The position numbers and the translations under genes were made by a program. From positions 40,262 to 104,261 of the forward strand of contig JAQWDH010000002.1 of assembly GCA_028705565.1 (NCBI GenBank): a stretch of DNA of 64,000 nt. Direction: 5' to 3'. Numbering within the stretch: position 1 is the first letter of the stretch; every line of letters starts with the position of its first letter. The stretch is from Patescibacteria group bacterium. Its GTDB lineage: Bacteria > Patescibacteriota > Patescibacteriia > Magasanikbacterales > GWA2-37-8. Under the pieces are notes generated by a model, which saw only the letters and a program-made list of their open reading frames with translations, searched no databases and had not been told where the DNA came from. Shown here one piece after another: positions 10,159 to 63,910 of this stretch.

Positions 10159-10587
10159 TTATTTTTTTGCGGCTTTTGGCCTCTTTGTGCCATACACGCT
10201 TCGGCCCCTGCGGCGCGTTTCAATTCCTTGCGTATCATAAACGCCGCGCACTATATGATAGCGCACGCCCGGCAAATCTTTCACCCTTCCGCCGCGAATG
10301 AGCACGATGGAGTGTTCCTGCAAATTATGTCCTTCGCCCGGGATATAAGCTATAACTTCAATTCCGTTACTAAGACGAATTTTTGCGACTTTTCGCAAAG
10401 CCGAATTCGGTTTCTTCGGGGTAGTCGTATAAACCTTTACGCACACGCCCCTTTTAAATGAAGCGCCCTTCGGCAATTCATTTTTTTTACGGTGTAAATT
10501 ATCCACCGAAAGCTGTAAAGCCGGCGTTTTGCTTTTGCGAACCTTGTTTGTTCTGCCCTTGCGGACCAATTGGCTTATAGTAGGCAT
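10159..10587 (-). CDS. rpsL: 30S ribosomal protein S12
   Basis: 142 aa, [12 protein letters not shown]...[10 protein letters not shown], nearly invariant S12 sequence. Confidence 0.98.
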
Positions 10588-10605
10588 ACTTTAAAATAAT
10601 TTTTA

Positions 10606-10621
10606 ATTCCTGCCAACAGGC
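10606..10621 (-). promoter_or_regulatory. 5' UTR hairpin or palindrome CCTGCC-N4-GGCAGG immediately upstream of the rpsL start
   Basis: Perfect 6-bp arms. The same motif recurs upstream of another gene start at 36858-36873 and inside repeat elements. Confidence 0.4.
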
Positions 10622-10786
10622 AGGTTATAAATTTTAATTTTTAAATTAAGTAAAAAAAATACTGAACGGAAAGCTCAGCCACGAGTTTATATCTGATACG
10701 TTCTAAATAAGAGTATACTTGAAAACGAAAATTATGTCAAGAGCCGAAAAGAACCCGAGAAAACCGAATTATTTTTCGGTAATTTT

Positions 10787-11158
10787 TTAGATTATTTCAA
10801 CGCGGTCGCACCCTAATTGCTTGAGTTTATCTTGTATTTTTGATATTACATTTTGTTTTTGCCGCGATATTTTTTCAATCTTTAAAATTCTTTCCGAGTC
10901 ATCATCCTCTTGCGCTGTTTGTTTGGCTTCTTCTACCATTCTATCAAATTCACTTCCGTCAATTTTAAATATCCCATTCTCTAAAACGACCATGCTGCTT
11001 GGCCAAATAGCTTCGCCATGTGGATCGGCTTCTTCGTTAATGAATTTATTTAGCAACTGATTAATTTCCGGATCGTAGTCAAGTTGATTATATATTGATT
11101 CAAGATTAATCTTATTCCTCTCTTGCGGAGAAATTGTGTCTTTAAATTTTTCTGCCAT
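10787..11158 (-). CDS. hypothetical protein (acidic, 123 aa)
   Basis: ORF with no recognisable motif. Confidence 0.4.
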   Translation of the reverse strand: MAEKFKDTISPQERNKINLESIYNQLDYDPEINQLLNKFINEEADPHGEAIWPSSMVVLENGIFKIDGSEFDRMVEEAKQTAQEDDDSERILKIEKISRQKQNVISKIQDKLKQLGCDRVEII

Positions 11159-11299
11159 AATATTTTGGTTAAATTTAAAACAATTAAATTATACCGCAAG
11201 TTGCGCCGACCGTAAAGTATTATAAAAATTTTCGGATATAACGCATAACGTACGCATAAATGAGGTGCCGCCTTAACAATATGGGTGGAGCGAAGCGAA

Positions 11300-11420
11300 A
11301 CCGAATACACGCTGTTAGGCGATGCAAAATTTTACGCTTTTTGTTTTTTTCGCTCGCCATTAAATCTTGAGTGGCAGGGGGGGGGCGTCGATCACTATGG
11401 CGAAGGGGATGGCCCCTCGT
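11300..11420. repeat. Repeat element copy A with a G9 homopolymer tract. It shares ~75 nt (gctgttaggcg...ttttacgctttttgttttttt...G-tract...cgtcgatcactatggcgaagggg) with copy B at 14590-14745.
   Basis: Direct sequence comparison of the two regions. The G-tract is striking in an AT-rich genome. The copy overlaps the last codons of the 11395..13401 ORF. Confidence 0.6.
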
Positions 11421-13401
11421 TGTAACTTGCCGTGTTTATCCAGGTATGCTCATTTTTATTCCACAAAATTTTATTATTAATTTGCGCGCTACTTACGGTT
11501 ATTTCAGAAGTATTTTTTAAATATTCATCTCTTATTTCACAAATTATTTTTTTTGTTCCGCTTAATATTAAATCAGAATTACCATCTTTATTTGTATCTT
11601 TATATTCACTCGCCAATTTATCATTGGAAAAAATTTCTCCGCAATTACCGTATCCGTATTTTTTAAAATTGTCAGGCGACCATTTGATATCAGGGTTGAT
11701 GTCAACTGCATGGGTTTCAAACAATAAATTTAGCTTATCATTTTTAATTTCATAAATATATAAAGAACCATGACCAACATGCGTTAATCCATAAATCTCC
11801 ACTAATGGATTACCAAAACCTTCTAAACTAATAAATCTTGCCGATAAAATAGCCTGCTCACCAGGTAATTTATCTATTGGCAGCCAATTTATATTTTTAT
11901 TCTTGACATTACCAACTTTTATTTCTTCCCACCAGTCTCTCTCCCATTCTATTTGCGCCAAAAAATATTTTTTATTTTGGCTATATGTTAATTCAATGTC
12001 TTCCAGTTGTTCACTTTGCCCTTTCACAATTTGATCTTTTATTTTATTCTCCAATGAATAGACAATACTGCCATTCAAAAATAACGGCAATATCATGATT
12101 AATAAAATTGACCAAAGGCGAATTATTCCTAGCTTTTTGTCTTTTTTTACACCTTTCTTATATATATTCCAAACATTATCTACGTATTCTTGTTTACCAG
12201 GGCCGTATTTTAAGACAGCTTCTTGCCATGATTTCCAATATCTTTTATTATCAGGGGTTATACCTTGAGCTTTGTGATAAAGCCATCTTACACCCCAATT
12301 AATACTGTCCTTGACTGTTTCCACCTTAGCATCATATTTTAAAAGTATTGTTTTACCATTATGAATCCAATATTCCGGAAGCTCTCCTCTTAGGGTTAAT
12401 ATTGACGGATCACCTCCATTTCCAACTTGCATGACATTTGATCCAGCCATTTTATCAAACCCCACTCTGCTTTCTTGGTACATTATCGCCTTCACTAAAT
12501 TAGGATCTAAAAATTCGCTGGGTGGATCAGTATCTTTCAAAAATTCATTATTCCAGTAAGTGACCGCTTCTGCTATTATCGCGTCATATCGGTTATAATC
12601 TTCCTTGCACCCAACACCCCCGCATGTATAAAGTCTAGTAATTGCTTCATTATTTTCGCCATTACTATTATTAGTAGCCAAAACCATTATTTCAATCTTT
12701 TTTAAAGTTGGACTTTTGTCCGCCCACAGCTCAATAAAATGTTTTCCTTTCCCCAAATTCAACTCTTTTGTATATTCCCTTTCATTCCCTTTTAACATTT
12801 TTCCACACCAATACCAATCTTTATGCGAATTTTTATTTTCGTTTTCTTCTACTTTGCCGTCAACAACCACTTTAATATCATCGTCATCTCTTTTTAATTT
12901 ATTCGCGCTTGCAACGATATGGAGTTTTTTAATGGCTAAATTTTGTAAAACATAATTTATCCATGGCCTCCTGTCTCCTTTTTCTGGTGGATTATTATTT
13001 AATGGAGAATAAATTATTGTTTGGTTATCCATTTCTTCCAATTCCATTATATTGATGCTTTCTAAACTTGGACTTTGGTCAGGCCGCAATCGAAGAGTGT
13101 GCCCGCCTTTCTTTAAAATGGTGGCAACCAGTACTATTTTTGATAATCCTTTTAACTCATTGCCGTTCCAAATTGCTTTAACATCAATGTCCTTGCTGTT
13201 TGAAGTAAAAATTTCAGTATTGTCTAAATACAAAATTATATCATCATCTTTAAAAAAAGATCTAAAACTTTTAAAGTTTTGCCACCAGCTTTTTGCTTTG
13301 GCTATTACTTCAATCAAATAAACACCCTCATTTGTTTCAAAAAAATAAAAAAAATCTTCTTTTATTTCTTTGTTTATTTTTTGGCTATGAAGTAATTTCA
13401 T
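11395..13401 (-). CDS. large multidomain protein with two internal repeated modules, a lytic-transglycosylase (SLT)-like motif (AIMYQESRVGFD), a central transmembrane helix and a C-terminal domain
   Basis: The ES-containing motif resembles the SLT catalytic glutamate region. A hydrophobic segment LGIIRLWSILLIMILPLFL is present. The C-terminal residues read into repeat element A. Confidence 0.5.
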   Translation of the reverse strand: MKLLHSQKINKEIKEDFFYFFETNEGVYLIEVIAKAKSWWQNFKSFRSFFKDDDIILYLDNTEIFTSNSKDIDVKAIWNGNELKGLSKIVLVATILKKGGHTLRLRPDQSPSLESINIMELEEMDNQTIIYSPLNNNPPEKGDRRPWINYVLQNLAIKKLHIVASANKLKRDDDDIKVVVDGKVEENENKNSHKDWYWCGKMLKGNEREYTKELNLGKGKHFIELWADKSPTLKKIEIMVLATNNSNGENNEAITRLYTCGGVGCKEDYNRYDAIIAEAVTYWNNEFLKDTDPPSEFLDPNLVKAIMYQESRVGFDKMAGSNVMQVGNGGDPSILTLRGELPEYWIHNGKTILLKYDAKVETVKDSINWGVRWLYHKAQGITPDNKRYWKSWQEAVLKYGPGKQEYVDNVWNIYKKGVKKDKKLGIIRLWSILLIMILPLFLNGSIVYSLENKIKDQIVKGQSEQLEDIELTYSQNKKYFLAQIEWERDWWEEIKVGNVKNKNINWLPIDKLPGEQAILSARFISLEGFGNPLVEIYGLTHVGHGSLYIYEIKNDKLNLLFETHAVDINPDIKWSPDNFKKYGYGNCGEIFSNDKLASEYKDTNKDGNSDLILSGTKKIICEIRDEYLKNTSEITVSSAQINNKILWNKNEHTWINTASYNEGPSPSP

Positions 13402-13527
13402 ATTTTATATTAATAAGAAATAATCTAATAGACCTTAGCATGTCTTTAAACTGCTTTTTTTATTTGTCAAAAAATCGTTCTGAAAAAAAACAAAAATATT
13501 TCTTTAAAATTTCAACTAACGTTATTC

Positions 13528-13692
13528 GGGACTGTCGCCGAATATGTTTGTCATTCCCGCCCCGTCATCCGACGGGGTAAACTCCAATTATTGTCATTCC
13601 CGCGAAAGCGGGAATCCATGTAATCGAACGATGGATTCCCGCTTTCGCGGGAATGACATAATAAACGATTTTTGTTATTCGGCGACAGTCCC
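13528..13692. mobile_element. MITE-like palindromic element (~165 bp) with 16-bp terminal inverted repeats (ggactgtcgccgaata / tattcggcgacagtcc) and internal gtcattcccgcgaaagcgggaatcc palindromes
   Basis: TIRs and internal palindrome read from the sequence. Other copies are at 46030-46165, inside tgt at 20351-20417, and as fragments elsewhere. Confidence 0.65.
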
Positions 13693-13820
13693 TATTCATA
13701 TCTGAAGTTTTTACGGAACGTAGCGAGGCAAAAATTTGGGTGGAGGCTCGCCAGAGGCGAACCGTAACCAGGTATGAGTTGTTGGGAGAGGCTTTAGCCC
13801 TTGATTTTGAATTTTAGCCA

Positions 13821-14412
13821 TCAATCCAAATGCTCCTTGCAATTAAAGACACACGTTTTATGATTTTTATCTTCATCAATTTCAAAAATACAGATACTCG
13901 TATTGTGTAAGTTTTCAATTGATTTTATAGCATCAGGCGTTTTATTTGTTATTACAGCTATTAATGCCTTGTTTATGCTATTATGTCCTGCAAATAAAAC
14001 GGTGTCTTTTGAATGTTTTGTTAAAATGTTATACAAGAACTTTTTAGCGCGATTGAATAATTCTTCAAATGTTTCGCCATCTTTGGGAGAAATTCCCGCA
14101 ATACTTAGAGTTTTTGGGAATCCAAGTTCAGTTTTACTTTTGCCTTGCCATTCTCCTAAATATTTTTCTCTCAATTCTTTAACAAACTCAATCGGAACAG
14201 TTAAATGAAATTTTGCAATTTCTTTCGCGGTATCTGAAGTTCTTGCCAAATCACTTGAATATATAAAATCAATTTTTTCATCTTTTAATCTTAACGCGAC
14301 TTTCTTTGCTTGAACAATGCCTATATTTGAAAGTTTGCCAGGCAAGTGCCCTTGAATAATTCCAGCGGCATTTTCTTCTGTTTCGCCATGTCTTGTGATA
14401 ATGAGTTTCATA
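13821..14412 (-). CDS. histidine phosphatase superfamily protein (phosphoglycerate-mutase-like)
   Basis: RHGE catalytic motif (MKLIITRHGETEEN). Start set at the internal Met at 14412. Confidence 0.7.
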
Positions 14413-14589
14413 CAGGGAAGATAAAAATCATAAAATGTATGTCTTTTGTAATCGCATTTGGATTGATGGCCAAAATTCAAATTTCGCCTAACGTTCGCCG
14501 ATATGCGCTGTTTCGCACATTCCATTAAAATTAAATTTGTGCGAAATATGGGTGAGAGAAAAAGTGTATCCGCTGAAAATTATTTACAC

Positions 14590-14745
14590 TTTTTCTTGAA
14601 CCGCATATCGGCTGTTAGGCGTTGTAAAATTTTTACACTTTTTGTTTTTTCGTTCACTCACGGGGGGGGTAGGGGGGGGGCGTCAATCACTATGGCGAAA
14701 GGGGGTAGAGGCCTGCCGGTAGGCAGGGGTAAGGGTGAATGCCCC
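14590..14745. repeat. Repeat element copy B with two G8-G9 tracts and a gcctgccggtaggcagg palindrome; related to copy A at 11300-11420
   Basis: Sequence comparison with copy A. It lies between the Fic gene stop and the phosphatase start. Confidence 0.6.
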
Positions 14746-14765
14746 CTGTAGTAGCCATCATTTTA

Positions 14766-15821
14766 TCAGTTGGCAATGTAGGCGGTGGTTTTTCCTTTTC
14801 CTGTTGCTTTAATCATTTTAATTTTCTTTAATTTTTGTAATTGTAATTGTGCGGATCGGCGCGGGCAAGATAAAATGTCCTCGACATCTTTAACGGCGAT
14901 GCGACCGACCTGATCTAAAAAGTCAATAATTTTTAGTTGTTCGGGAGTAAGGTAAATTTGTGATTTGATTTTTCCATCAACATTACGGGTGGATAATGGC
15001 AGGACTTTGTTTTTTACCTCATCAATTTCTTTTTTGAACCCTTTTACAAAATATTCCAACCACGATGTAATGTCTGTGCGTCGTTCATCATAAGTTTTGC
15101 CTAAGTTTATGGCGTTATAATATGACTGGCGGTCAGTGTTATAATAATCCTCTAAAGCAAACAAACGCCGAAAATCATATCCGCGCTGATAAAGTATTAA
15201 GGTGGCTAAAGCGCGAGCCGTACGGCCGTTGCCGTCGTTAAATGGGTGAATGGCGGCAATTTCCATGTGAGCAATAGCAGCTACAAGCACGGGGCTTATT
15301 TCTTGCATTTCGCTTTCTGTAAGCCATGCCACAAACTCAGACATTAGTTGGGGTACCTTTTTGGCCTCTGGCCCGGTATACAAGGTTTCTTGGGGTATAC
15401 CCAAACGACGGCGGACAACAAAAATTGGTCCGGGTCGGTAATGGCCACAGAATTGAGGTGCTAAAGTTTTATTGGCGACTAATTTATGTATTTTTAAAAT
15501 TATTTTTTCAGTTATTGGTTTATGTTCAGTTACAACTTTTTCAATAAAATTAAGAGCATTGAGATAATTTTTTACTTCGTAAATATCCCGGTCGGGCGCG
15601 TCTATTTTTTTCTTGGCATAAAGCGCCTCTACTTGCCCCATGTTTAATTTATTGCCCTCAATCTCGGTGGAGTGGTGGGTCATGCGGATAATCGCTTGTC
15701 GGCGCAATTTTATCTCTTGTTGTGGTAAAATTTTAGCACGATCAATAATGCCTTTTGCCTCGGCGATAGCAGTAAGGTCGCGTAAAATTTTATTGGTGTG
15801 TTTGTATTTGGGGGCAAACAT
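14766..15821 (-). CDS. Fic/Doc family protein (Fido domain, C-terminal winged-helix)
   Basis: Contains the canonical Fic motif HPFNDGNGRTAR. Confidence 0.85.
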   Translation of the reverse strand: MFAPKYKHTNKILRDLTAIAEAKGIIDRAKILPQQEIKLRRQAIIRMTHHSTEIEGNKLNMGQVEALYAKKKIDAPDRDIYEVKNYLNALNFIEKVVTEHKPITEKIILKIHKLVANKTLAPQFCGHYRPGPIFVVRRRLGIPQETLYTGPEAKKVPQLMSEFVAWLTESEMQEISPVLVAAIAHMEIAAIHPFNDGNGRTARALATLILYQRGYDFRRLFALEDYYNTDRQSYYNAINLGKTYDERRTDITSWLEYFVKGFKKEIDEVKNKVLPLSTRNVDGKIKSQIYLTPEQLKIIDFLDQVGRIAVKDVEDILSCPRRSAQLQLQKLKKIKMIKATGKGKTTAYIAN

Positions 15822-16103
15822 ATTATAAAATAATGGTGTTTAAGTTACACTGGCATTATACCACAAAACAGCGATTCGCGCAAGATTCGCGCAAGATTCG
15901 CGCAAAGAAAATTGCTTTTTTGGTAGAGCGGATAGATGGTGGCAAACGTCCGTGTTTCTAATATCACATTTCATACTTAATCATTACTGTGTCGCTAACT
16001 TACTAAATAAATTTGATAGCCACAAGAAAAATCGCTTAATTAATGATATTTTCTGTGGTTGTTGTTCCGGTGTGGATGAGACATTTTGAGTTGATGAAGT
16101 GTT

Positions 16104-16510
16104 TTATTTAATAACAACGGATTCTTGCTGCGGAGACACCTGCGGTTGGTCAGTAGTTTTTTGCGTATTTTGGTTTGGTGTGGGTGTAACAAGATTACTG
16201 TTTTCGTCAACATTTGGAATAAACAATTTTAGAGAGCCGAGTTTTTTTAAATCTATGTCTTCCAAAACTGAAACGCGAGAGTAATTGTTATTAGTGTTGC
16301 CAGAAGCAACAGCTGAATTATTAAGCCACGCTCTGATTGTATTTATAGATAAGATGTAGCCCATTGCGTTGAGTTCGCCTTTGACTACAGCAGACGGTAT
16401 GCCAATGTATGTGCCATTTTTTAGATAAACGCCACCACCGGAATTACCATATTCAAGTATGGCGGTAGTTTTTAGGTAGCCACCATCATTTGTGTAACCA
16501 GATATTTGGT
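16104..16510 (-). pseudogene. Remnant of a trypsin-like (S1/HtrA-type) serine protease; only the C-terminal part with the GNSGG active-site serine box is present
   Basis: The open frame from 16510 translates to ...GYTNDGGYLKTTAILEYGNSGGGVYLKNGTYIGIP.... An in-frame stop lies at 16511-16513. No upstream His/Asp catalytic region is seen. Confidence 0.4.
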
Positions 16511-16673
16511 GTTAGACGATGTGCCGAACTCTTTATTTTCTTTCGGCATTTCATCTAACTATTAATAAACGAACTCTTGGCGATATTGGCGGAGAGATGC
16601 TAAAATTTTATCATTAACTTTAATTCAGAACGGACAATGGGCTACGGACGATAGACAATGGACAAATGTCCGT

Positions 16674-16940
16674 CTATTGTTTCGTTTTGTTTTTCATTTG
16701 CGATTCAATATCCGACAAACTTTTTTCTAGATTTTCTTTTTCTTTTTGTTTTTGAATATACATTTCTTTTATACTTTCTCCTGTGCCAATCACCCTCTGC
16801 CTTCCGCCTAAAAATTCATCTATTTTGCCGATTTTTTTCTTAACTTCTTCACTTTTATTTTTAAGAGCGATAAACTCTTTCAGCTCTTCATTCTCCGGCG
16901 CGTTCAAATCCATTATTATTGTTTTGTTTGCGTTTTCCAT
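16674..16940 (-). CDS. hypothetical small coiled-coil protein
   Basis: ORF only; K/E-rich. Confidence 0.35.
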   Translation of the reverse strand: MENANKTIIMDLNAPENEELKEFIALKNKSEEVKKKIGKIDEFLGGRQRVIGTGESIKEMYIQKQKEKENLEKSLSDIESQMKNKTKQ

Positions 16941-16997
16941 ATTTTTTATTTTTAAATAAGTTACTATTTTTTATATAATACAACCTATTTTTTAAAA

Positions 16998-19145
16998 TTA
17001 CAAATCGTCTAAATCGCGCAAAAAATTTCCCTTTTTTATTTTAGGCGCGTCTTCAGACACATAATGCATGTCTTCTTCGTCGTCATTTAGCGCGAGCGAG
17101 GAATGCGGAGATAAAAAAGAAGAGTCGCGCAGAAATTCCGGACTTATTTCTTCCAAAAACAAACTCGGTCCGCTCGCCCCTCCCCACCCGCCGCCGCAAA
17201 GCGGATATGTGAGGCAAAGATGTTTTTTTGCGCGCGTGACAGCGACATAAAAAAGCCGACGTTCTTCTTCCAAACCGTTTTCTTCACGCAACGCCATATC
17301 GCTCGGAAACGCCCCGCGCGATAAATTGATTATGAATACCGCCGTCCATTCCAGCCCTTTCGCTTGGTGAATGGTGGAAAGAATAATTTTACCGCCACTT
17401 CCGCTTTTTGCTCCAACCAATTCAGACTCCAATGCCCCTTTTGTTTGTTCTTTATATTGGGACTGCCTGTTTCCCAAATTAAACGATTCAAACAAGCTCG
17501 CTTCGGACAAAAACAAATTCAAATCATCGTATTTTTTCGCGAACTCGGCAAGTTGGATAATATCGTCCAATCTTTCTTTGCCATCAGTGAATTCCGATAA
17601 AACATACTCTTTGTATCGCGAATCCAAAAGCGCGAAAACGAGTTCTGACGGATTTTTAATTTCAACGGCTGAAAGCAAATCCAGAATCGCGGTAAAACTC
17701 ACCCAACCCTCCTTGGCTTTTTCGCCCAAAATTTCAAATCCGATATTTTTTATTTCTTCAAGAGCGTTTTCTCCCTCCGTAATTTCAACTGCGGAATCGC
17801 TGTCTTCTTTTTTATTCGCTCCGACGCGCGCCGACACGATTTTAATTGCTTCAATTATTTTTTCCGCCGTAACCGGACCGATGCCTTCTTGTTTCAACAG
17901 CACTCTCAACCACGCGGCTGCGTCCGCGATATTATTCATCACTCTTAAAAAAGCCAAAGCATCTTTAATGTGCGCCCGCTCAAAAAAACGCATACCTCCG
18001 CGATAATCATACGGAACGCCGGATTTCATAAGTTCCATTTCCAACGGCTGTGAATGGTGGGAAGCGCGAAAAAGCACCGCGATTTCCTCTGGTAAAGTTC
18101 CCGCCCCCAAAAGCTCCCTGATTTTTTTGGCGACAAAAACAGCTTCGTTTTCTTGGTCATAATGCGGTTTTAATTCGGGTTTGATTCCTGTCGGCGACGA
18201 CGCGCTTTTCAATTCTTTTTTAAATTGCCTGCGATTATTATTTATAGATTCGTTCGCCAAATCCAAAATCTCAGGCGCGGAGCGGTAATTCGTCGTTAAT
18301 TTGAAAATTTTAGCGCCAGGATAAATTTTTTCAAATCTTAAAATATTCTGGATGTCTGCCGCGCGAAAAGAATAAATGCTCTGAGCGTCATCGCCGACCA
18401 CAAAAATATTATTGTGTTTTGAAGCCAGCAACCGAACAATCTCGGCTTGAATTTTATTCGTGTCTTGAAATTCATCAACTAAAATATACTGGAATTGGTC
18501 CGCGAATTTTTCCAAAACACCGCGCTCTTTTTCAAATAAAATTTTCAAATTTATCAACAAATCGTCAAAATCCATCGCCTGCGCTTCTTTTTTCTTCATT
18601 TTATAATCAGACGCGACTGTTTTTATCGTTTCCGCCAAATGCGACCATTGCGGATATTTAAAATCCAGCGCGTCTTCAATTGTCGTGTCCGAGTTTCTCG
18701 CATAACTTATCGCCGATAACAAAACCGAAGCCGAAGGAAATTTTGTTCCTGAATCCGGTCTTGTATTTTTGACGCTCAATTTTATCAAACTCTCGCTGTC
18801 GCCGCTGTCTAAAATGGAAAAATTATTTTTATATCCGAGTTTTGGAGCGTAAATTTTTAAAATTCTGTAAGCGATATGGTGAAATGTTCCAGCCCAGGGC
18901 AATTTTTCTTCCATGCCAGTTATTCTTTTAACGCGCCCAATCATCTCTTCCGCCGCTTTGTTTGTAAAAGTAACCAATAAAATATTTTCCGGCTTGATTC
19001 CTTTTTCCAAAAGATAAGCCACGCGAAAAGTGATAACTCGCGTTTTACCGGTGCCAGCGCCCGCCAAAACTAAACACGGTCCGTCTCCGAGACGAACCGC
19101 TTCAAATTGTTCTTTGTTTAATTCTTTTTCAAAATCAATCGCCAT
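16998..19145 (-). CDS. pcrA: UvrD/PcrA/Rep-family ATP-dependent DNA helicase
   Basis: 715 aa with Walker A GAGTGKT and UvrD family N-terminus (LNKEQFEAV...VLAGAGTGKTRVITFRVAYLL). Confidence 0.85.
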   Translation of the reverse strand: MAIDFEKELNKEQFEAVRLGDGPCLVLAGAGTGKTRVITFRVAYLLEKGIKPENILLVTFTNKAAEEMIGRVKRITGMEEKLPWAGTFHHIAYRILKIYAPKLGYKNNFSILDSGDSESLIKLSVKNTRPDSGTKFPSASVLLSAISYARNSDTTIEDALDFKYPQWSHLAETIKTVASDYKMKKKEAQAMDFDDLLINLKILFEKERGVLEKFADQFQYILVDEFQDTNKIQAEIVRLLASKHNNIFVVGDDAQSIYSFRAADIQNILRFEKIYPGAKIFKLTTNYRSAPEILDLANESINNNRRQFKKELKSASSPTGIKPELKPHYDQENEAVFVAKKIRELLGAGTLPEEIAVLFRASHHSQPLEMELMKSGVPYDYRGGMRFFERAHIKDALAFLRVMNNIADAAAWLRVLLKQEGIGPVTAEKIIEAIKIVSARVGANKKEDSDSAVEITEGENALEEIKNIGFEILGEKAKEGWVSFTAILDLLSAVEIKNPSELVFALLDSRYKEYVLSEFTDGKERLDDIIQLAEFAKKYDDLNLFLSEASLFESFNLGNRQSQYKEQTKGALESELVGAKSGSGGKIILSTIHQAKGLEWTAVFIINLSRGAFPSDMALREENGLEEERRLFYVAVTRAKKHLCLTYPLCGGGWGGASGPSLFLEEISPEFLRDSSFLSPHSSLALNDDEEDMHYVSEDAPKIKKGNFLRDLDDL

Positions 19146-19930: not shown

Positions 19931-21238
19931 ATGCGAAATTATATGAAATTTTTTGAGACAATTCACCAAGACAAAAAAAGCCGCGCGCGAGCCGGCATAA
20001 TCCGCGCTGAACACGGCGATATTGAAACGCCGGTTTTTATGCCTGTCGGAACGCAGGCTGTCGTAAAAACTTTGGATAGCGAAGATTTGGAAAAAATCAA
20101 CGCGCAAATTATTTTGGGAAACACATATCATCTGCATCTTCGGTCCGGAGAAGATTTAATCGCGGAAATGGGCGGGCTTCACAAATTTATGAATTGGAAC
20201 AAACCGATTCTCACCGACTCGGGCGGTTTCCAAGTTTTCAGTTTAGGAAAATCATTATTACGACCCACATCTTGTAGAGAGTTGGGATACACCTCAAACA
20301 ATACAAAAATGGATTACAAATCTACCAACAAGGCAGATGGGAATTTCAACTGTCATTCCCGTGAAAACGGGAATCCAGACAATTTGGCGATGGATTCCCG
20401 CCTGCGCGGGAATGACAATACAAAATTGGTAAAAATTGACGACGATGGAGTGTCGTTTCGCTCGCACATTGACGGTTCAAAACATCGCTTTACTCCGGAG
20501 TCGGCGACTGAAATTCAAAATAAGCTCGGCGCTGATATTATTATGGCTTTTGACGAATGCACGCCGGATGAAGCGCCATACGAATACGCGCGGAAAGCGT
20601 TAGACCGCACGCACGACTGGGCGAAAAGATGCTTGGATTTTCATCAAAAAAACAAAAAAAACGAAAAACAATTTTTATTTGGCATCATTCAAGGCGCGAA
20701 GCATAAAGATTTAAGAGAAGAATCCGCCCATTTTATTTCTTCGCTTGATTTTGACGGCATTGCCATAGGCGGAGAATCAATCGGTTATAATATGGAGGCC
20801 ACAAAAGAAATAATGGATTGGGTAACGCCGATTATTCCGGAAAATAAACCGCGCTATACCATGGGTGTCGGACTTGACCCCGCTGATTTATTGCAAGTTG
20901 TGGAAAGCGGAGCAGATATGTTTGATTGCGTCGCCCCAACGCGATTAGCAAGGCATGGTGTGCTGTTTATCAGCGATAAAGCGGACTGTAAACATCGCCT
21001 AAACATTACCAACGCTCAATACACAAAAGACGCGAGTCCGATTGATGAAAAGTGCGAATGTCCTGTTTGTCTGAAATATACTCGCGCTTACATCCATCAT
21101 CTTTTTTTAGCCGATGAAATGACCGGCATGCGCCTCGCTTCAATCCATAACCTGTATTTTATGCTTGATTTAATGCGTAAAACCCGACAGGCGATTTTGG
21201 AAGACAATTTTATGGAATTTAAGAAAAAATGGAAATAA
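19931..21238 (+). CDS. tgt: queuine tRNA-ribosyltransferase carrying an in-frame ~60-aa insertion derived from a palindromic repeat element
   Basis: Tgt motifs are present (PVFMPVGTQA, DSGGFQVFSLG, FDEC, zinc site CxCxxC...H). Compared with E. coli Tgt (SLGDIRKITEQGVHF), the insert is KSLLRPTS...NCHSRENGNPD...MDSRLRGNDN...; the genuine start may be Met5. Confidence 0.85.
   Translation: MRNYMKFFETIHQDKKSRARAGIIRAEHGDIETPVFMPVGTQAVVKTLDSEDLEKINAQIILGNTYHLHLRSGEDLIAEMGGLHKFMNWNKPILTDSGGFQVFSLGKSLLRPTSCRELGYTSNNTKMDYKSTNKADGNFNCHSRENGNPDNLAMDSRLRGNDNTKLVKIDDDGVSFRSHIDGSKHRFTPESATEIQNKLGADIIMAFDECTPDEAPYEYARKALDRTHDWAKRCLDFHQKNKKNEKQFLFGIIQGAKHKDLREESAHFISSLDFDGIAIGGESIGYNMEATKEIMDWVTPIIPENKPRYTMGVGLDPADLLQVVESGADMFDCVAPTRLARHGVLFISDKADCKHRLNITNAQYTKDASPIDEKCECPVCLKYTRAYIHHLFLADEMTGMRLASIHNLYFMLDLMRKTRQAILEDNFMEFKKKWK
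20351..20417. repeat. MITE-family palindromic core (tgtcattcccgtgaaaacgggaatcc ... ggattcccgcctgcgcgggaatgaca) embedded in-frame in tgt
   Basis: Sequence identity to the internal palindromes of the MITE at 13528-13692. Confidence 0.7.
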
Positions 21239-45950: not shown

Positions 45951-46029
45951 AACTTGTTTTTAATTTTAAAATCCAAATTTTAAAATAATTTTTAATTTTA
46001 TAATTTTTAATTTTATAAATAAATCTTTC

Positions 46030-46165
46030 CGCCCCATCATCCGACGGGGTAAACTCCAATTGTTGTCATTCCCGCGAAAGCGGGAATCCATCGTCCGATT
46101 ATATGGATTCCCGCTTTCGCGGGAATGACAGAATGAACGATTTTCGTTATTCGGCGACAGCCCCT
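46030..46165. mobile_element. Second MITE-family copy, 5'-truncated, carrying gtcattcccgcgaaagcgggaatccat...atggattcccgctttcgcgggaatgaca and the right TIR
   Basis: Near-identical to 13560-13692. The spurious ORF 46037..46342 is its translation (IPAKAGIH...IPAFAGMT). Confidence 0.65.
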
Positions 46166-61258: not shown

Positions 61259-63910
61259 TCAAAACGATCTCACTGCTCTGACATGTCCCCCCCCATAGCC
61301 TTTATCATCCGCATACTCCAAATCGCTATCAAAATACCTGTCCCATGATTGATACGCATTACTCTCTGACGAACTCCAATACCAACTGGTGAGGGAGAAA
61401 CCGCCAATAGCCACTCGGTTTAGATAAAGTTTGTTCAATTCATTTCTGCTTGGCAAATACCAATCGCTATAACCTCCCGATACCAGGTCATCGCATAACT
61501 TTGCGGCGCTGGTTGTATGACCAGCTTGACCCACGATAGCCGTTGTATTTGCCTGACCTGTTCCTATTGCGTCTGATGTTCCGGCTAACTGGTCTACTAC
61601 ATTGCTCCACGCCGTACCGACGCTTTGATCGCTCGCCATGGCTATTAAACCATGCTGTGTATTAGCGTCATAACCTGTGTCTCCTTCCGCTAAAATATAA
61701 GCCACTACGCCTCCTTGATAACTATCGCCAACAGCGACAGGAGTTGCCGATGCGGCACGAATTTTACCTCCGCCAAGCGCGTAAAGCTGTTTTATTTCGT
61801 TCAAAGACAAGGCGCGATTGTAAATGCGGATATCGTCTAAATTTCCTTTAAATTTATAACTGTCTGCATATCCACCAAACCTGCCAATCGCAACGCCATC
61901 AGTTGTCCCTCCGTTTGGGTTGGTTGTTATTGTGTCAGTTTTATCTAAAACGCCATCAATATAAATACTTTCTACCCAATTTCCAGAAGAACCGGAACGT
62001 GTTACGGCAAAATAATGCCAATAATTATCCGAAATAGAACGGTTGGAAATTATATTTGGACTATCAGCCGTATTCCAAAGACCTAATTTGTAATCGTTAT
62101 AACCAAAAACCAATGCATAATTTGCAACAACACCAGTAGAGTTTGTTATGATAGATTGAGATGAAGTATAATCTCCATTCAATTTAAACCAACCTGAAAG
62201 GGTCAAACTTCCTTGTTGGTTTAATGTTGTTTGAGTTCCAAGGTCTATATAATCATTACTCCCGTCAAACTTCCCCGCCTGACCGATTTTACCAGAAGAT
62301 ACAGCCACGCCGCCATTTCTTGTTCCATTATTTCCCTGTCCGCTTTTATCAAACACGGTCGTCGCGTTCACATCCTTGCCGTCAAATGTCCACCAACCCA
62401 CGAGACCGGATTTTAGATTATTATTTGTGGTTGGGGCGTTTTGAAGCGAGGATGCCTGTTTTGCTCCGCCAAGCGCGTAAAGCTGTTTGATTTCATTCAA
62501 AGACAAAGCGCGGTTGTAGATGCGGACATCGTCCAAACCTCCTTTCCACCAATCAACACCTAATGCGTCATTTCCAATATAAAAAGCACTGCTATTATCT
62601 GAAATTGCTGTATAACTTTGGCAAGTTCCCGCGGCAATGCCATTTCTGTATCCGCATGTTTGCGTTCCATCTGATACTAAAACTATATGCGTCCATTTGC
62701 CTCTATAATTTTCCATGTCCGTAAATATAATTTTCCCGCTTCCGCCGTCCAAAGCTATATATAAATTTCCAGCACCATATATTTCTATTTGATAACCCGG
62801 GTAAGGACTCCCACCCATTTTATGCATTATCGGCTGATAATTTGTGCCACCACTTTCTCTTTTTAACCAAAATGACCACGACATTTTCGCACCTGTGCCG
62901 GAGCCATCCAATGAGCCGTTTGTGGAAGCGTCTAAAATATAATTTCTGTCATTCACTCCATCAAACTTCCCCGCTTGACCGATTTTACCGGTTCCCATCG
63001 CCACTCCTCCATACCTTCCTACATTATTTCCCTGTCCGCTTTTATCAAACACGGTCGTCGCGTTCACATCCTTGCCGTCAAATGTCCACCAGCCGACGAG
63101 ACCGGATTTTATATTATTGTTTGGAGTTGGAGCATTTTGGAGCGAGGTCGCCTGTTTCGCTCCGCCAAGCGCGTAAAGCTGTTTTACCTCTGAAACGGAC
63201 AAAGAACGATTATACACACGAAAATCATCCAGAGAACCATTAAAAAAATTTGGTGTTGGTCCGCCTATTATTTCCGCGCCACTGGTCATGGCGGAAAACG
63301 AACAACTGCTGTCGCTGTCTTTTAAGACATTATCAACATACAAACGGTAACTACTGGCGTCCCAAGTAAAAACAATGTGTTTCCAAGCTTTTGGAAAAGT
63401 CCACGCAACTCCATTACTATATTCTCCGCTGTCTGGCATTCCTGTTGAACCTGCCCAATAAACATACATTGCTCCGCTGTTATGCACATATATTCTTGGT
63501 TTATTATCGCTAAACGAAATCAATGAACCATAATGAGAAATATTTGAATTTATCCAAAAACTTACTGTCCCACCAGTATTACTTACCACAGTGGAAAGGT
63601 CCGGGACTGACACCCGGCTACTTGACCCGTTTAACTTTCCGGCTTGCCCTATTTTACCGGCAATCGGTGTAATCGCAGTTTTGGTTCCATCTTTTCCGCC
63701 ACCGCTTTTATCAAACACGGTCGTCGCGTTCACATCCTTGCCGTCAAATGTCCACCAGCCGACGAGGCCTCTTGTTAAATTATTATTTGAGGTTGAAACA
63801 GCGGTGTTGGAAGAATTGATGATTGAAGATTGGACAGTAAAAAAAGGCCAGAGAAAGAGACCTGAAATTATAATGAAATATAAAAATTTTTTAGGGATTA
63901 TGTGGAGCAT
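61259..63910 (-). CDS. large surface protein with three tandem LamG/concanavalin-A-like lectin domains and a C-terminal DUF1566-like domain
   Basis: The unit LVGWWTFDGKDVNATTVFDKSG...LDD.R.YNRALS..E.KQLYALGG is repeated 3 times with near-identical DNA. The C-terminus has SDWYLPSRNELNKLYL. N-terminal signal/TM segment present. Confidence 0.6.
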   Translation of the reverse strand: MLHIIPKKFLYFIIISGLFLWPFFTVQSSIINSSNTAVSTSNNNLTRGLVGWWTFDGKDVNATTVFDKSGGGKDGTKTAITPIAGKIGQAGKLNGSSSRVSVPDLSTVVSNTGGTVSFWINSNISHYGSLISFSDNKPRIYVHNSGAMYVYWAGSTGMPDSGEYSNGVAWTFPKAWKHIVFTWDASSYRLYVDNVLKDSDSSCSFSAMTSGAEIIGGPTPNFFNGSLDDFRVYNRSLSVSEVKQLYALGGAKQATSLQNAPTPNNNIKSGLVGWWTFDGKDVNATTVFDKSGQGNNVGRYGGVAMGTGKIGQAGKFDGVNDRNYILDASTNGSLDGSGTGAKMSWSFWLKRESGGTNYQPIMHKMGGSPYPGYQIEIYGAGNLYIALDGGSGKIIFTDMENYRGKWTHIVLVSDGTQTCGYRNGIAAGTCQSYTAISDNSSAFYIGNDALGVDWWKGGLDDVRIYNRALSLNEIKQLYALGGAKQASSLQNAPTTNNNLKSGLVGWWTFDGKDVNATTVFDKSGQGNNGTRNGGVAVSSGKIGQAGKFDGSNDYIDLGTQTTLNQQGSLTLSGWFKLNGDYTSSQSIITNSTGVVANYALVFGYNDYKLGLWNTADSPNIISNRSISDNYWHYFAVTRSGSSGNWVESIYIDGVLDKTDTITTNPNGGTTDGVAIGRFGGYADSYKFKGNLDDIRIYNRALSLNEIKQLYALGGGKIRAASATPVAVGDSYQGGVVAYILAEGDTGYDANTQHGLIAMASDQSVGTAWSNVVDQLAGTSDAIGTGQANTTAIVGQAGHTTSAAKLCDDLVSGGYSDWYLPSRNELNKLYLNRVAIGGFSLTSWYWSSSESNAYQSWDRYFDSDLEYADDKGYGGGHVRAVRSF

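Follow-up and report, generated by a model that had tools for sequence, protein, structure and literature searches.

Gene content and repeats of the locus

The DNA analysed here is a single stretch of 64,000 nt from a Patescibacteria (CPR) genome, referred to below as the window. Between 10.8 and 15.2 kb it carries, all on the minus strand, rpsL, a 123-aa ORF, a 668-aa ORF, and genes for a histidine phosphatase, a Fic protein and UvrD. Repeats on the plus strand are interspersed with these genes. Two parts are distinguished in the repeats: domain 1, a hairpin/three-way-junction site of ~90-240 nt between the inverse boxes nnnTAAC and GTTAnnn, and module X, which spans ~140 nt and consists of a hairpin, a T-run, G tracts and a stem-loop with a conserved G-rich loop. 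The features of the region are:

11237 to 11322, plus strand: site A, domain 1 (nhmmer E=2e-24, 46-copy profile)
11321 to 11420, plus strand: reduced module X_R of the 668-aa cassette, overlapping the last codons of the ORF
11395 to 13401, minus strand: cassette ORF of 668 aa, no Pfam family
13478 to 13509, plus strand: X_L remnant (inverted partner), an A-run beside the left box of site C
13510 to 13790, plus strand: site C, domain 1 (nhmmer E=1e-6; 2e-11 once a MITE is removed)
13803 to 14484, minus strand: histidine-phosphatase cassette, ORF 13821-14411 (PF00300, 5.6e-42)
14481 to 14622, plus strand: site B, complete domain 1 (nhmmer E=1e-31)
14621 to 14760, plus strand: module X_R of the Fic cassette, with AT hairpin (14621-38), T-run (14639-51), G8 (14662-69) and G9 (14672-80)
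14766 to 15821, minus strand: Fic-family cassette ORF (PF02661, 8.6e-19)
16478 to 16559, plus strand: site D, partial (nhmmer E=9e-6)
16560 to 16627, plus strand: attI-like/recombinase-promoter region, gene lost (by comparison with locus L050)

The 668-aa protein had been assigned an SLT domain in a preliminary description of this DNA, but Pfam contains no such match, even at E≤5. The histidine-phosphatase cassette is bounded by inverted repeats of ~70 nt (13803-13874 and 14417-14484), which reach up to the box of site C on one side and that of site B on the other. Proteins at least 90% identical to the window Fic protein are found in MAGs with names such as Magasanikbacteria and Parcubacteria group, a distribution that fits horizontal spread of the cassette. 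The Fic start codon is preceded by three tandem copies of GATTCGCGCAA (15872-15905), which could represent an operator or binding site.

The preliminary description reported two repeats with a common core, and these are real. The degenerate 23-nt core GCTGTTAGGCGWTGYAAAATTTT has two matches in the window, at 11311 and 14611, with 0.01 expected, and ATCACTATGGCGAA is identical in both copies. Copy A (11237-11420) and copy B (~14480-14760) have a common part of ~130 nt, across which pairwise alignment gives ~70% column identity. As described, both lie at the 3' end of a minus-strand gene, each abutting an ORF stop codon, and the palindrome mentioned for copy B corresponds to GCCTGCCGGTAGGCAGG at 14711-14727.

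Profile searches identified four domain-1 copies in the window (A, B, C, and D), all on the plus strand. Site A has a degenerate left arm, and its right box, GTTAGGC, occupies 11314-11320. Site B has the left box ATTTCGCCTAAC, the right box GTTAGGC (14614-14620), and an interior consisting of an 11-bp stem, GCCGATATGCG/CGCATATCGGC, and two variable hairpins, with a predicted fold of -35.8 kcal/mol (DNA parameters). A third, partial copy had been suspected and does exist as site C, but its extent had been placed too small: it comprises 13510-13527, with the left box TTTCAACTAACGT at 13510-13522, and 13693-13790, the two pieces being split by a 165-bp MITE (13528-13692; TIR GGGACTGTCGCCGAATA, TSD TATTC). 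The fourth copy, D, retains the right half of domain 1 (16478-16519) with the box GTTAGAC at 16511-17, followed by an 'empty cassette' hairpin (16520-49) and a terminal left box, TTTCATCTAAC (16549-59). The same arrangement adjoins a recombinase gene in locus L056. The ends of four Logan contigs (L004-L006, L008) fall within site B and its module: three independent ones stop exactly at 14621, beside the right box GTTAGGC, and the fourth begins at 14642. These breaks probably reflect a repeat-induced branch of the assembly graph at the repeated core and are not taken as evidence of cassette polymorphism, although they could be hiding some.

Structure and covariation of domain 1

The attC sites of integrons are 57-141 nt long, with the core sites R'' (RYYYAAC) and R' (GTTRRRY) placed in inverse orientation at the ends of an imperfect palindrome. 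They carry extrahelical bases in the L box, and are recombined as the folded bottom strand.

On the plus strand of the window, domain 1 reads TTTCRnnTAACGT, an 11-bp stem, GAWGTT, hairpin P2, AATWTGGGYGR, hairpin P3, and KAACC, after which the return strand of the stem and TGTTAnnnGATGT follow. TAAC and GTTA are almost invariant. The full 7-mers fit RYYYAAC/GTTRRRY in some copies (GCCTAAC/GTTAGGC, ACTTAAC/GTTAAGT), and there are also right boxes off the GTTRRRY consensus (GTTATGT, GTTAGCT). Among 43 copies from many Patescibacteria MAGs, a mean of 10.6 of the 11 stem pairs are formed, with 3-6 pair types at six positions, and RNAalifold reports 5 covarying pairs in domain 1. One-sided changes yield G.U on the plus strand and A.C on the minus strand. 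The plus-strand fold is the more stable one in 40/46 copies with RNA parameters and in 42/46 with DNA parameters (p~1e-7). By eye, the 11-bp stem lacks bulges, and an asymmetric spacer (GTTC vs T) is located on the arm opposite to that of canonical attC.

A structured sRNA, to be checked by covariation, had been proposed for the repeats. The structural part of this proposal is supported by the covarying stem in 43 copies; the sRNA part is not, with neither an Rfam match nor a conserved promoter. In Rfam 15, only tRNAs reach the gathering thresholds in the window, and nothing relevant was obtained at E≤10 in 10500-17000.

Distribution of the family and cassette contents

The repeats belong to a genuine multi-copy family. 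A collection scan detected the exact core in 10 genome loci. Nine of these have titles of Patescibacteria-lineage MAGs: Falkowbacteria, Magasanikbacteria, Uhrbacteria, Parcubacteria group, and unclassified Patescibacteria. The core pattern was present in 29 metagenome loci, and the viral collection gave one partial match and nothing else. In every locus of the core scan, the element directly adjoins the 3' end of an opposite-strand accessory ORF, and these ORFs are diverse in kind.

Profile searches revealed arrays. Loci L036, L042, and L041 contain 7 domain-1 copies each, on a single strand, and several other loci have 2-3 copies on the same strand. The arrays are tightly packed, with approximately one opposite-strand ORF per interval between consecutive copies. 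In the loci of the core scan, the cassette genes encode Fic (five loci), AbiEii, AAA_14+DUF4143, DNA methylase (DNA MTase), RloB, and YibE/F. An IS110-family transposase gene (NF033542; L036 6467-7432) is inserted beside a domain-1 site within one array, a position that recalls the IS1111-attC group, whose members target the attC sites of integrons.

Cassette boundaries

The three variable positions of the right box were compared with those of the next site's left box, across the ORF. They are complementary at a mean of 1.96 of 3 positions, and perfectly so in 14/24 comparisons, whereas the two boxes of the same site reach a mean of 1.02 of 3 (permutation test, p=5e-5). Examples are GTTATACGTA / TACGTATAAC in L041 and GTTGTACGAT / TTCGTACAAC in L036. 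This complementarity across the ORF looks like the footprint expected of an integron-type crossover inside the GTT/AAC core. That a site was inserted into a pre-existing palindrome was considered and rejected, because the complementary flanks belong to neighbouring sites and not to the same site.

Inverted repeats of 23-85 nt that begin exactly at GTTA are present in 13/24 cassettes. 'Empty' cassettes, consisting of only a short hairpin, occur in L041 and at 16520-16549 of the window. As in attC arrays, the sites are in the same orientation with one cassette each, and R' belongs to the next cassette. One right box and cassette body were found with differing site interiors, and hybrid sites are also present. 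A single crossover point is insufficient to explain these observations.

Module X and the homopolymer tracts

Module X occurs in a subset of copies only, positioned between the ORF stop and domain 1. The reduced module of the 668-aa cassette comprises an AT hairpin and T-run (11321-11350), a G9 tract (11377-11385), CGTCGATCACTATGGCGAA, and a GGGG/CCCC mini-hairpin. That of the Fic cassette includes the stem-loop with the conserved G-rich loop and has an extra inserted hairpin at 14711-27. A second, inverted copy of module X lies beside the left box at the far cassette end in L050, L014, L039, L024, and L041. Along one strand, the T-run and G tract of the first copy are faced by an A-run and a C tract in the inverted copy. 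A segment of ~19 nt containing CAATCAC has the same polarity on both arms and would be unable to pair. The hairpin and T-run had been considered terminator-like, but with an inverted partner (A-run and hairpin) at the opposite end of the cassette, the 'terminator' is instead one arm of a long cassette-end inverted repeat. Module X may extend the site stem, form inward-facing transcription barriers, or bind protein.

Two other candidate explanations were discarded. Plus-strand mini-ORFs (ATGGCGAAGGGG...TGA) have their frame broken in copies with inserted hairpins. The VR/TR repeats of a DGR do not fit either, as the repeats are non-coding and the differences between copies are not adenine-specific.

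A hairpin motif was seen beside cassette stop codons (window 14686-14760; L051 460-495 and 4570-4615; L056 669-706 and 5890-5932; L015 3009-3044; L032 291-332). Its stem is variable and covarying. The conserved loop is AGAGGGG-N2-7-GGGGTGAAT, or AUUCACCCC..CCCCUCU in the sense of the ORF, where it resembles the anti-Shine-Dalgarno end of 16S rRNA.

Runs of at least seven G on the plus strand of the whole window are limited to 11377-85, 14662-69, and 14672-80, in agreement with the earlier remarks that copy B has two tracts and that long G-runs are rare in this AT-rich genome. The one exception outside the elements is an unrelated run at 61287-61294, of 8 G on the minus strand, near the 3' end of an 883-aa ORF. 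Near-identical contigs from seven other samples were recovered by exact-protein look-ups. Over 1-4 kb they are otherwise identical to the window, and tract length is the sole difference. The copy-A tract has 9 G in the window and L001, and 8 in L002, L009, and L010. The proximal tract of copy B has 8 G in three assemblies and 7 in two (L003, L005), and the distal G9 tract is constant across the compared assemblies. Loci L039 and L045 differ in tract length (8 vs 9) and by one nearby 1-nt deletion. Across all copies, tract length ranges from 4 to 20; the longest, G20, is found in the module X copy at L041 3977-4070. Since tract lengths differ between otherwise identical assemblies, the G tracts likely mutate by slippage, the lengths being those of assembly consensus sequences, where homopolymer error is possible.

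The G tracts had been interpreted as substrates of phase variation. Their hypervariability between assemblies agrees with this, as expected of a phase-variable contingency locus; the switch itself is not supported. No ORF overlaps the tracts, which lie at least 10 nt past the stop codons, and no promoter hexamers with a G tract as spacer were detected at the elements, by eye or by scan. With neither an ORF nor a promoter-like site at the tracts, no ON/OFF switch can be defined.

The recombinase and the attI-like junction

Locus L050 contains a gene for a 280-aa tyrosine recombinase, divergent from the cassettes. The terminal left box lies ~80 nt before the recombinase ATG and is followed by a conserved stretch. 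Window positions 16548-16627 are 90% identical over 80 nt to L050 6085-6164, the stretch directly preceding the recombinase gene, and the junction is conserved in L050, L051, L053, and L055. In the window, tblastn and motif scans found no recombinase gene, and Pfam searches of the ORFs flanking the array returned housekeeping genes and no recombinase; among the first loci, only L050 has the gene.

Homologue loci were fetched (L051, L053/L054, L055, L056, and L057), giving six recombinase loci with L050. In all six, an array of 5-9 sites is located immediately upstream of, and divergent from, the recombinase gene, and no sites are found downstream. In the fetched loci the domain-1 copies are on the recombinase-sense strand, interleaved with accessory genes on the opposite strand, and cassette genes in the recombinase-locus arrays encode R-M, HicA/HicAB, NUDIX, Fic, and DKNYY. 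Divergent recombinase, attI-like junction, and array, the components of an integron platform, are found together in related loci; the window has kept the junction but not the gene.

The recombinase passes the NCBIfam model NF040815, "site-specific tyrosine recombinase/integron integrase" (235 bits, cut-off 220), and falls below the cut-off of TIGR02249, integron integrase (228 bits, cut-off 265). Its closest solved relatives are P. abyssi XerA (4A8E, 7e-46) and VchIntIA (2A3V, 4e-43). In the alignment to VchIntIA, query residues 182-202 are opposite IntI4 178-241, leaving ~43 residues missing, and the IntI-specific additional domain is absent. This domain is placed around patch III (Messier & Roy 2001, as cited in PMC9668308). 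More than 6000 homologues of the recombinase were found, and among the best 120, the named ones are almost all from Patescibacteria.

Interpretation

An integron-like gene-capture platform, of a kind typical of Patescibacteria, has probably decayed in the region ~11237-16627 and left a remnant without a recombinase. The four sites on one strand (D, B, C, and A) would delimit minus-strand cassettes: the Fic-containing one, the histidine phosphatase, and the 668-aa protein. In its intact form, the platform would have a gene for an XerA/IntI-like tyrosine recombinase beside the array, divergent from it and behind the conserved attI-like junction. Recombination in the GTT/AAC core would move the cassettes, and a crossover there would leave cassette bodies flanked by complementary boxes and 23-85-nt terminal inverted repeats. 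The strand antisense to the ORFs would fold and be recombined, as the bottom strand of attC is. Module X would be optional: some large, defence-type cassettes have it at either end as inverted copies, and pairing of its T-run and G tract with the partner A-run and C tract, possible on one strand, would extend the site stem. The complementary boxes and inverted repeats around cassette bodies are signatures shown in the sequence; recombination itself was not observed, either as circles or excision junctions or as presence/absence alleles. The recombinase may be a housekeeping Xer, because it is so conserved and widespread. Against an integron-like platform stand the lack of the IntI additional domain in the recombinase, the lack of a recombinase in the window, the hybrid sites and differing site interiors, and the extra unpaired bases on the arm opposite to that of attC. 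A wider proposal, to which we give a little under an even chance, is that CPR genomes commonly carry an unrecognised gene-capture platform, in which a conserved XerA/IntI-like recombinase without the IntI domain would act through long three-way-junction hairpin sites to maintain the cassettes beside it. Such a platform would stand to integrons as a sister or an ancestral form and connect Xer with IntI.

Other explanations were weighed against the same observations. The plus strand could encode a structured non-coding RNA, antisense to the cassette genes and ending in an intrinsic terminator, that acts as an sRNA or exerts riboswitch-like control of antisense read-through into toxin/defence genes. 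The better folding of that strand, the G.U pairs produced by one-sided changes, and the strong covariation are what such an RNA would show. The AT hairpin and T-run after the junction domain would suit it as well, and, by eye, a 5' ATTTCAC could compete for pairing in the hairpin. However, folded single-stranded DNA also tolerates G.T pairs, the hairpin and T-run are absent from most array copies, and the T-run has its inverted A-run partner at the other cassette end. An upstream promoter is neither conserved nor predicted, Rfam gives no match, and both the complementarity of boxes across ORFs and the linked recombinase are characteristic of DNA recombination, leaving the RNA improbable. We regard it as slightly less probable still that the G tracts are slipped-strand phase-variation switches that toggle the neighbouring accessory genes. 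Independent assemblies of different samples do differ solely by one base in a tract, as does the tract of the near-identical pair L039/L045, and the range of 4 to 20 across copies and the rarity of such tracts elsewhere in the AT-rich window point the same way. Yet the tracts follow stop codons, lie inside no conserved ORF, and are not flanked by promoter hexamers; moreover, they recur in inverted copies at both ends of cassettes with unrelated genes, and their lengths come from assemblies, in which homopolymer errors are possible.

The two remaining alternatives appear very unlikely, and about equally so. In one, the repeats are a selfish MITE/REP-type family without a role in gene capture, and their clustering reflects tolerated insertion sites in accessory regions. 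They are multi-copy, intergenic, and built of inverted repeats, and the genome has other MITEs, one of them inside site C. Nevertheless, target-site duplications are absent, polarity within arrays is strictly same-strand, the arrays lie solely upstream of the recombinase gene (6/6 loci), and the flanks of a copy complement those of the neighbouring copy instead of each other. In the other, a housekeeping Xer has integrated tandem elements at duplex dif-like sites, in the style of IMEX or pdif modules, and not at folded single strands. A recombinase that is XerA-like (NF040815), without the IntI insert, and apparently near-universal in the group would be expected from this, but sites of 90-240 nt that form hairpins with marked strand asymmetry are unlike duplexes of 28-31 bp. 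The sites also have a single orientation, unlike pdif modules, and the array is placed directly beside the recombinase gene, which is the arrangement of integrons.

Comparison with known systems

An integron-like platform shares with integrons the divergent tyrosine recombinase, the attI-like junction, and the same-orientation array with ORFs pointing away from the recombinase. There is approximately one site per mostly single-ORF cassette, some cassettes are empty, many contents are toxin/defence genes, and one site has an IS110-family insertion beside it. The sites resemble attC in being imperfect palindromes with a variable centre and with inverse cores similar to RYYYAAC/GTTRRRY (exactly GCCTAAC/GTTAGGC in site B). 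The better-folding strand is antisense to the ORFs, and the right box is complementary to the one at the far side of the cassette, as expected from a G|TT crossover. Having no recombinase, the window array is comparable to CALIN (attC clusters without integrase). The recombinase differs from IntI in lacking the IntI-specific additional domain and in scoring below the TIGR02249 cut-off. The sites are longer than attC, and distant lineages share conserved sequence in them (the GAWGTT, AATATGGGTGR, and KAACC junctions); their unpaired spacer bases are on the other arm, and no extrahelical bases are seen in the 11-bp stem. In addition, inverted repeats of 23-85 nt extend past the 7-bp box at the cassette ends, sometimes in the form of the T-run/G-tract module, and the hybrid sites suggest additional breakpoints.

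The use of a single recombinase and of accessory modules bounded by recombinase sites is also known from Xer/dif, IMEX, and pdif modules, and the closest solved relative of the recombinase is the archaeal XerA of P. abyssi. The dif and pdif sites are short duplexes, alternating in the case of pdif and not beside the xer gene, whereas the sites described here are long hairpins in one orientation beside the gene. The tracts resemble the poly-G contingency loci of Campylobacter and Neisseria in their length (G8-G9, up to G20), in one-base polymorphism between near-identical populations, and in the AT-rich genome. They differ in lying outside a coding frame or recognisable promoter spacer, within a mobile cassette-end inverted repeat.

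Our literature search on integrons, attC, or CALIN in CPR/Patescibacteria, which was incomplete in coverage, found nothing relevant, and integron-like arrays run on an Xer-type recombinase seem undescribed for CPR bacteria. These bacteria have tiny genomes, and how they acquire accessory and defence genes is little understood; a cassette array linked to a recombinase would give them a dedicated means of gene capture, and it seems to sit beside a recombinase whose homologues in the CPR group number in the thousands. The integron principle would then also apply to a recombinase that lacks the IntI hallmark domain, a point relevant to the origin of integrons from Xer-like enzymes. Such a platform would be invisible to IntI-based integron finders. 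Because the sites are conserved in sequence, metagenomes could be searched directly for cassette contents. Slippage in the G/C-tract inverted-repeat modules might adjust folding or the frequency of recombination, and slippage-prone tracts at cassette ends could cause within-population variation of cassette mobility or insulation.

Other repeats in the window

The MITE that splits site C belongs to a MITE-like family with ATTCCC-N8-GGGAAT palindromes (TGTCATTCCCGCGAAAGCGGGAATCC), found in the window at 13528-13692, 20344-20424, and 46026-46165. One copy (20351-20424) lies within the ORF of a tRNA-guanine transglycosylase (19931-21238), the Pfam match of which is split in two, and resembles in-frame insertions of palindromic elements. 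The 883-aa ORF on the minus strand (61259-63910) contains tandem repeats of 696 bp, in three units that are 82-91% identical.
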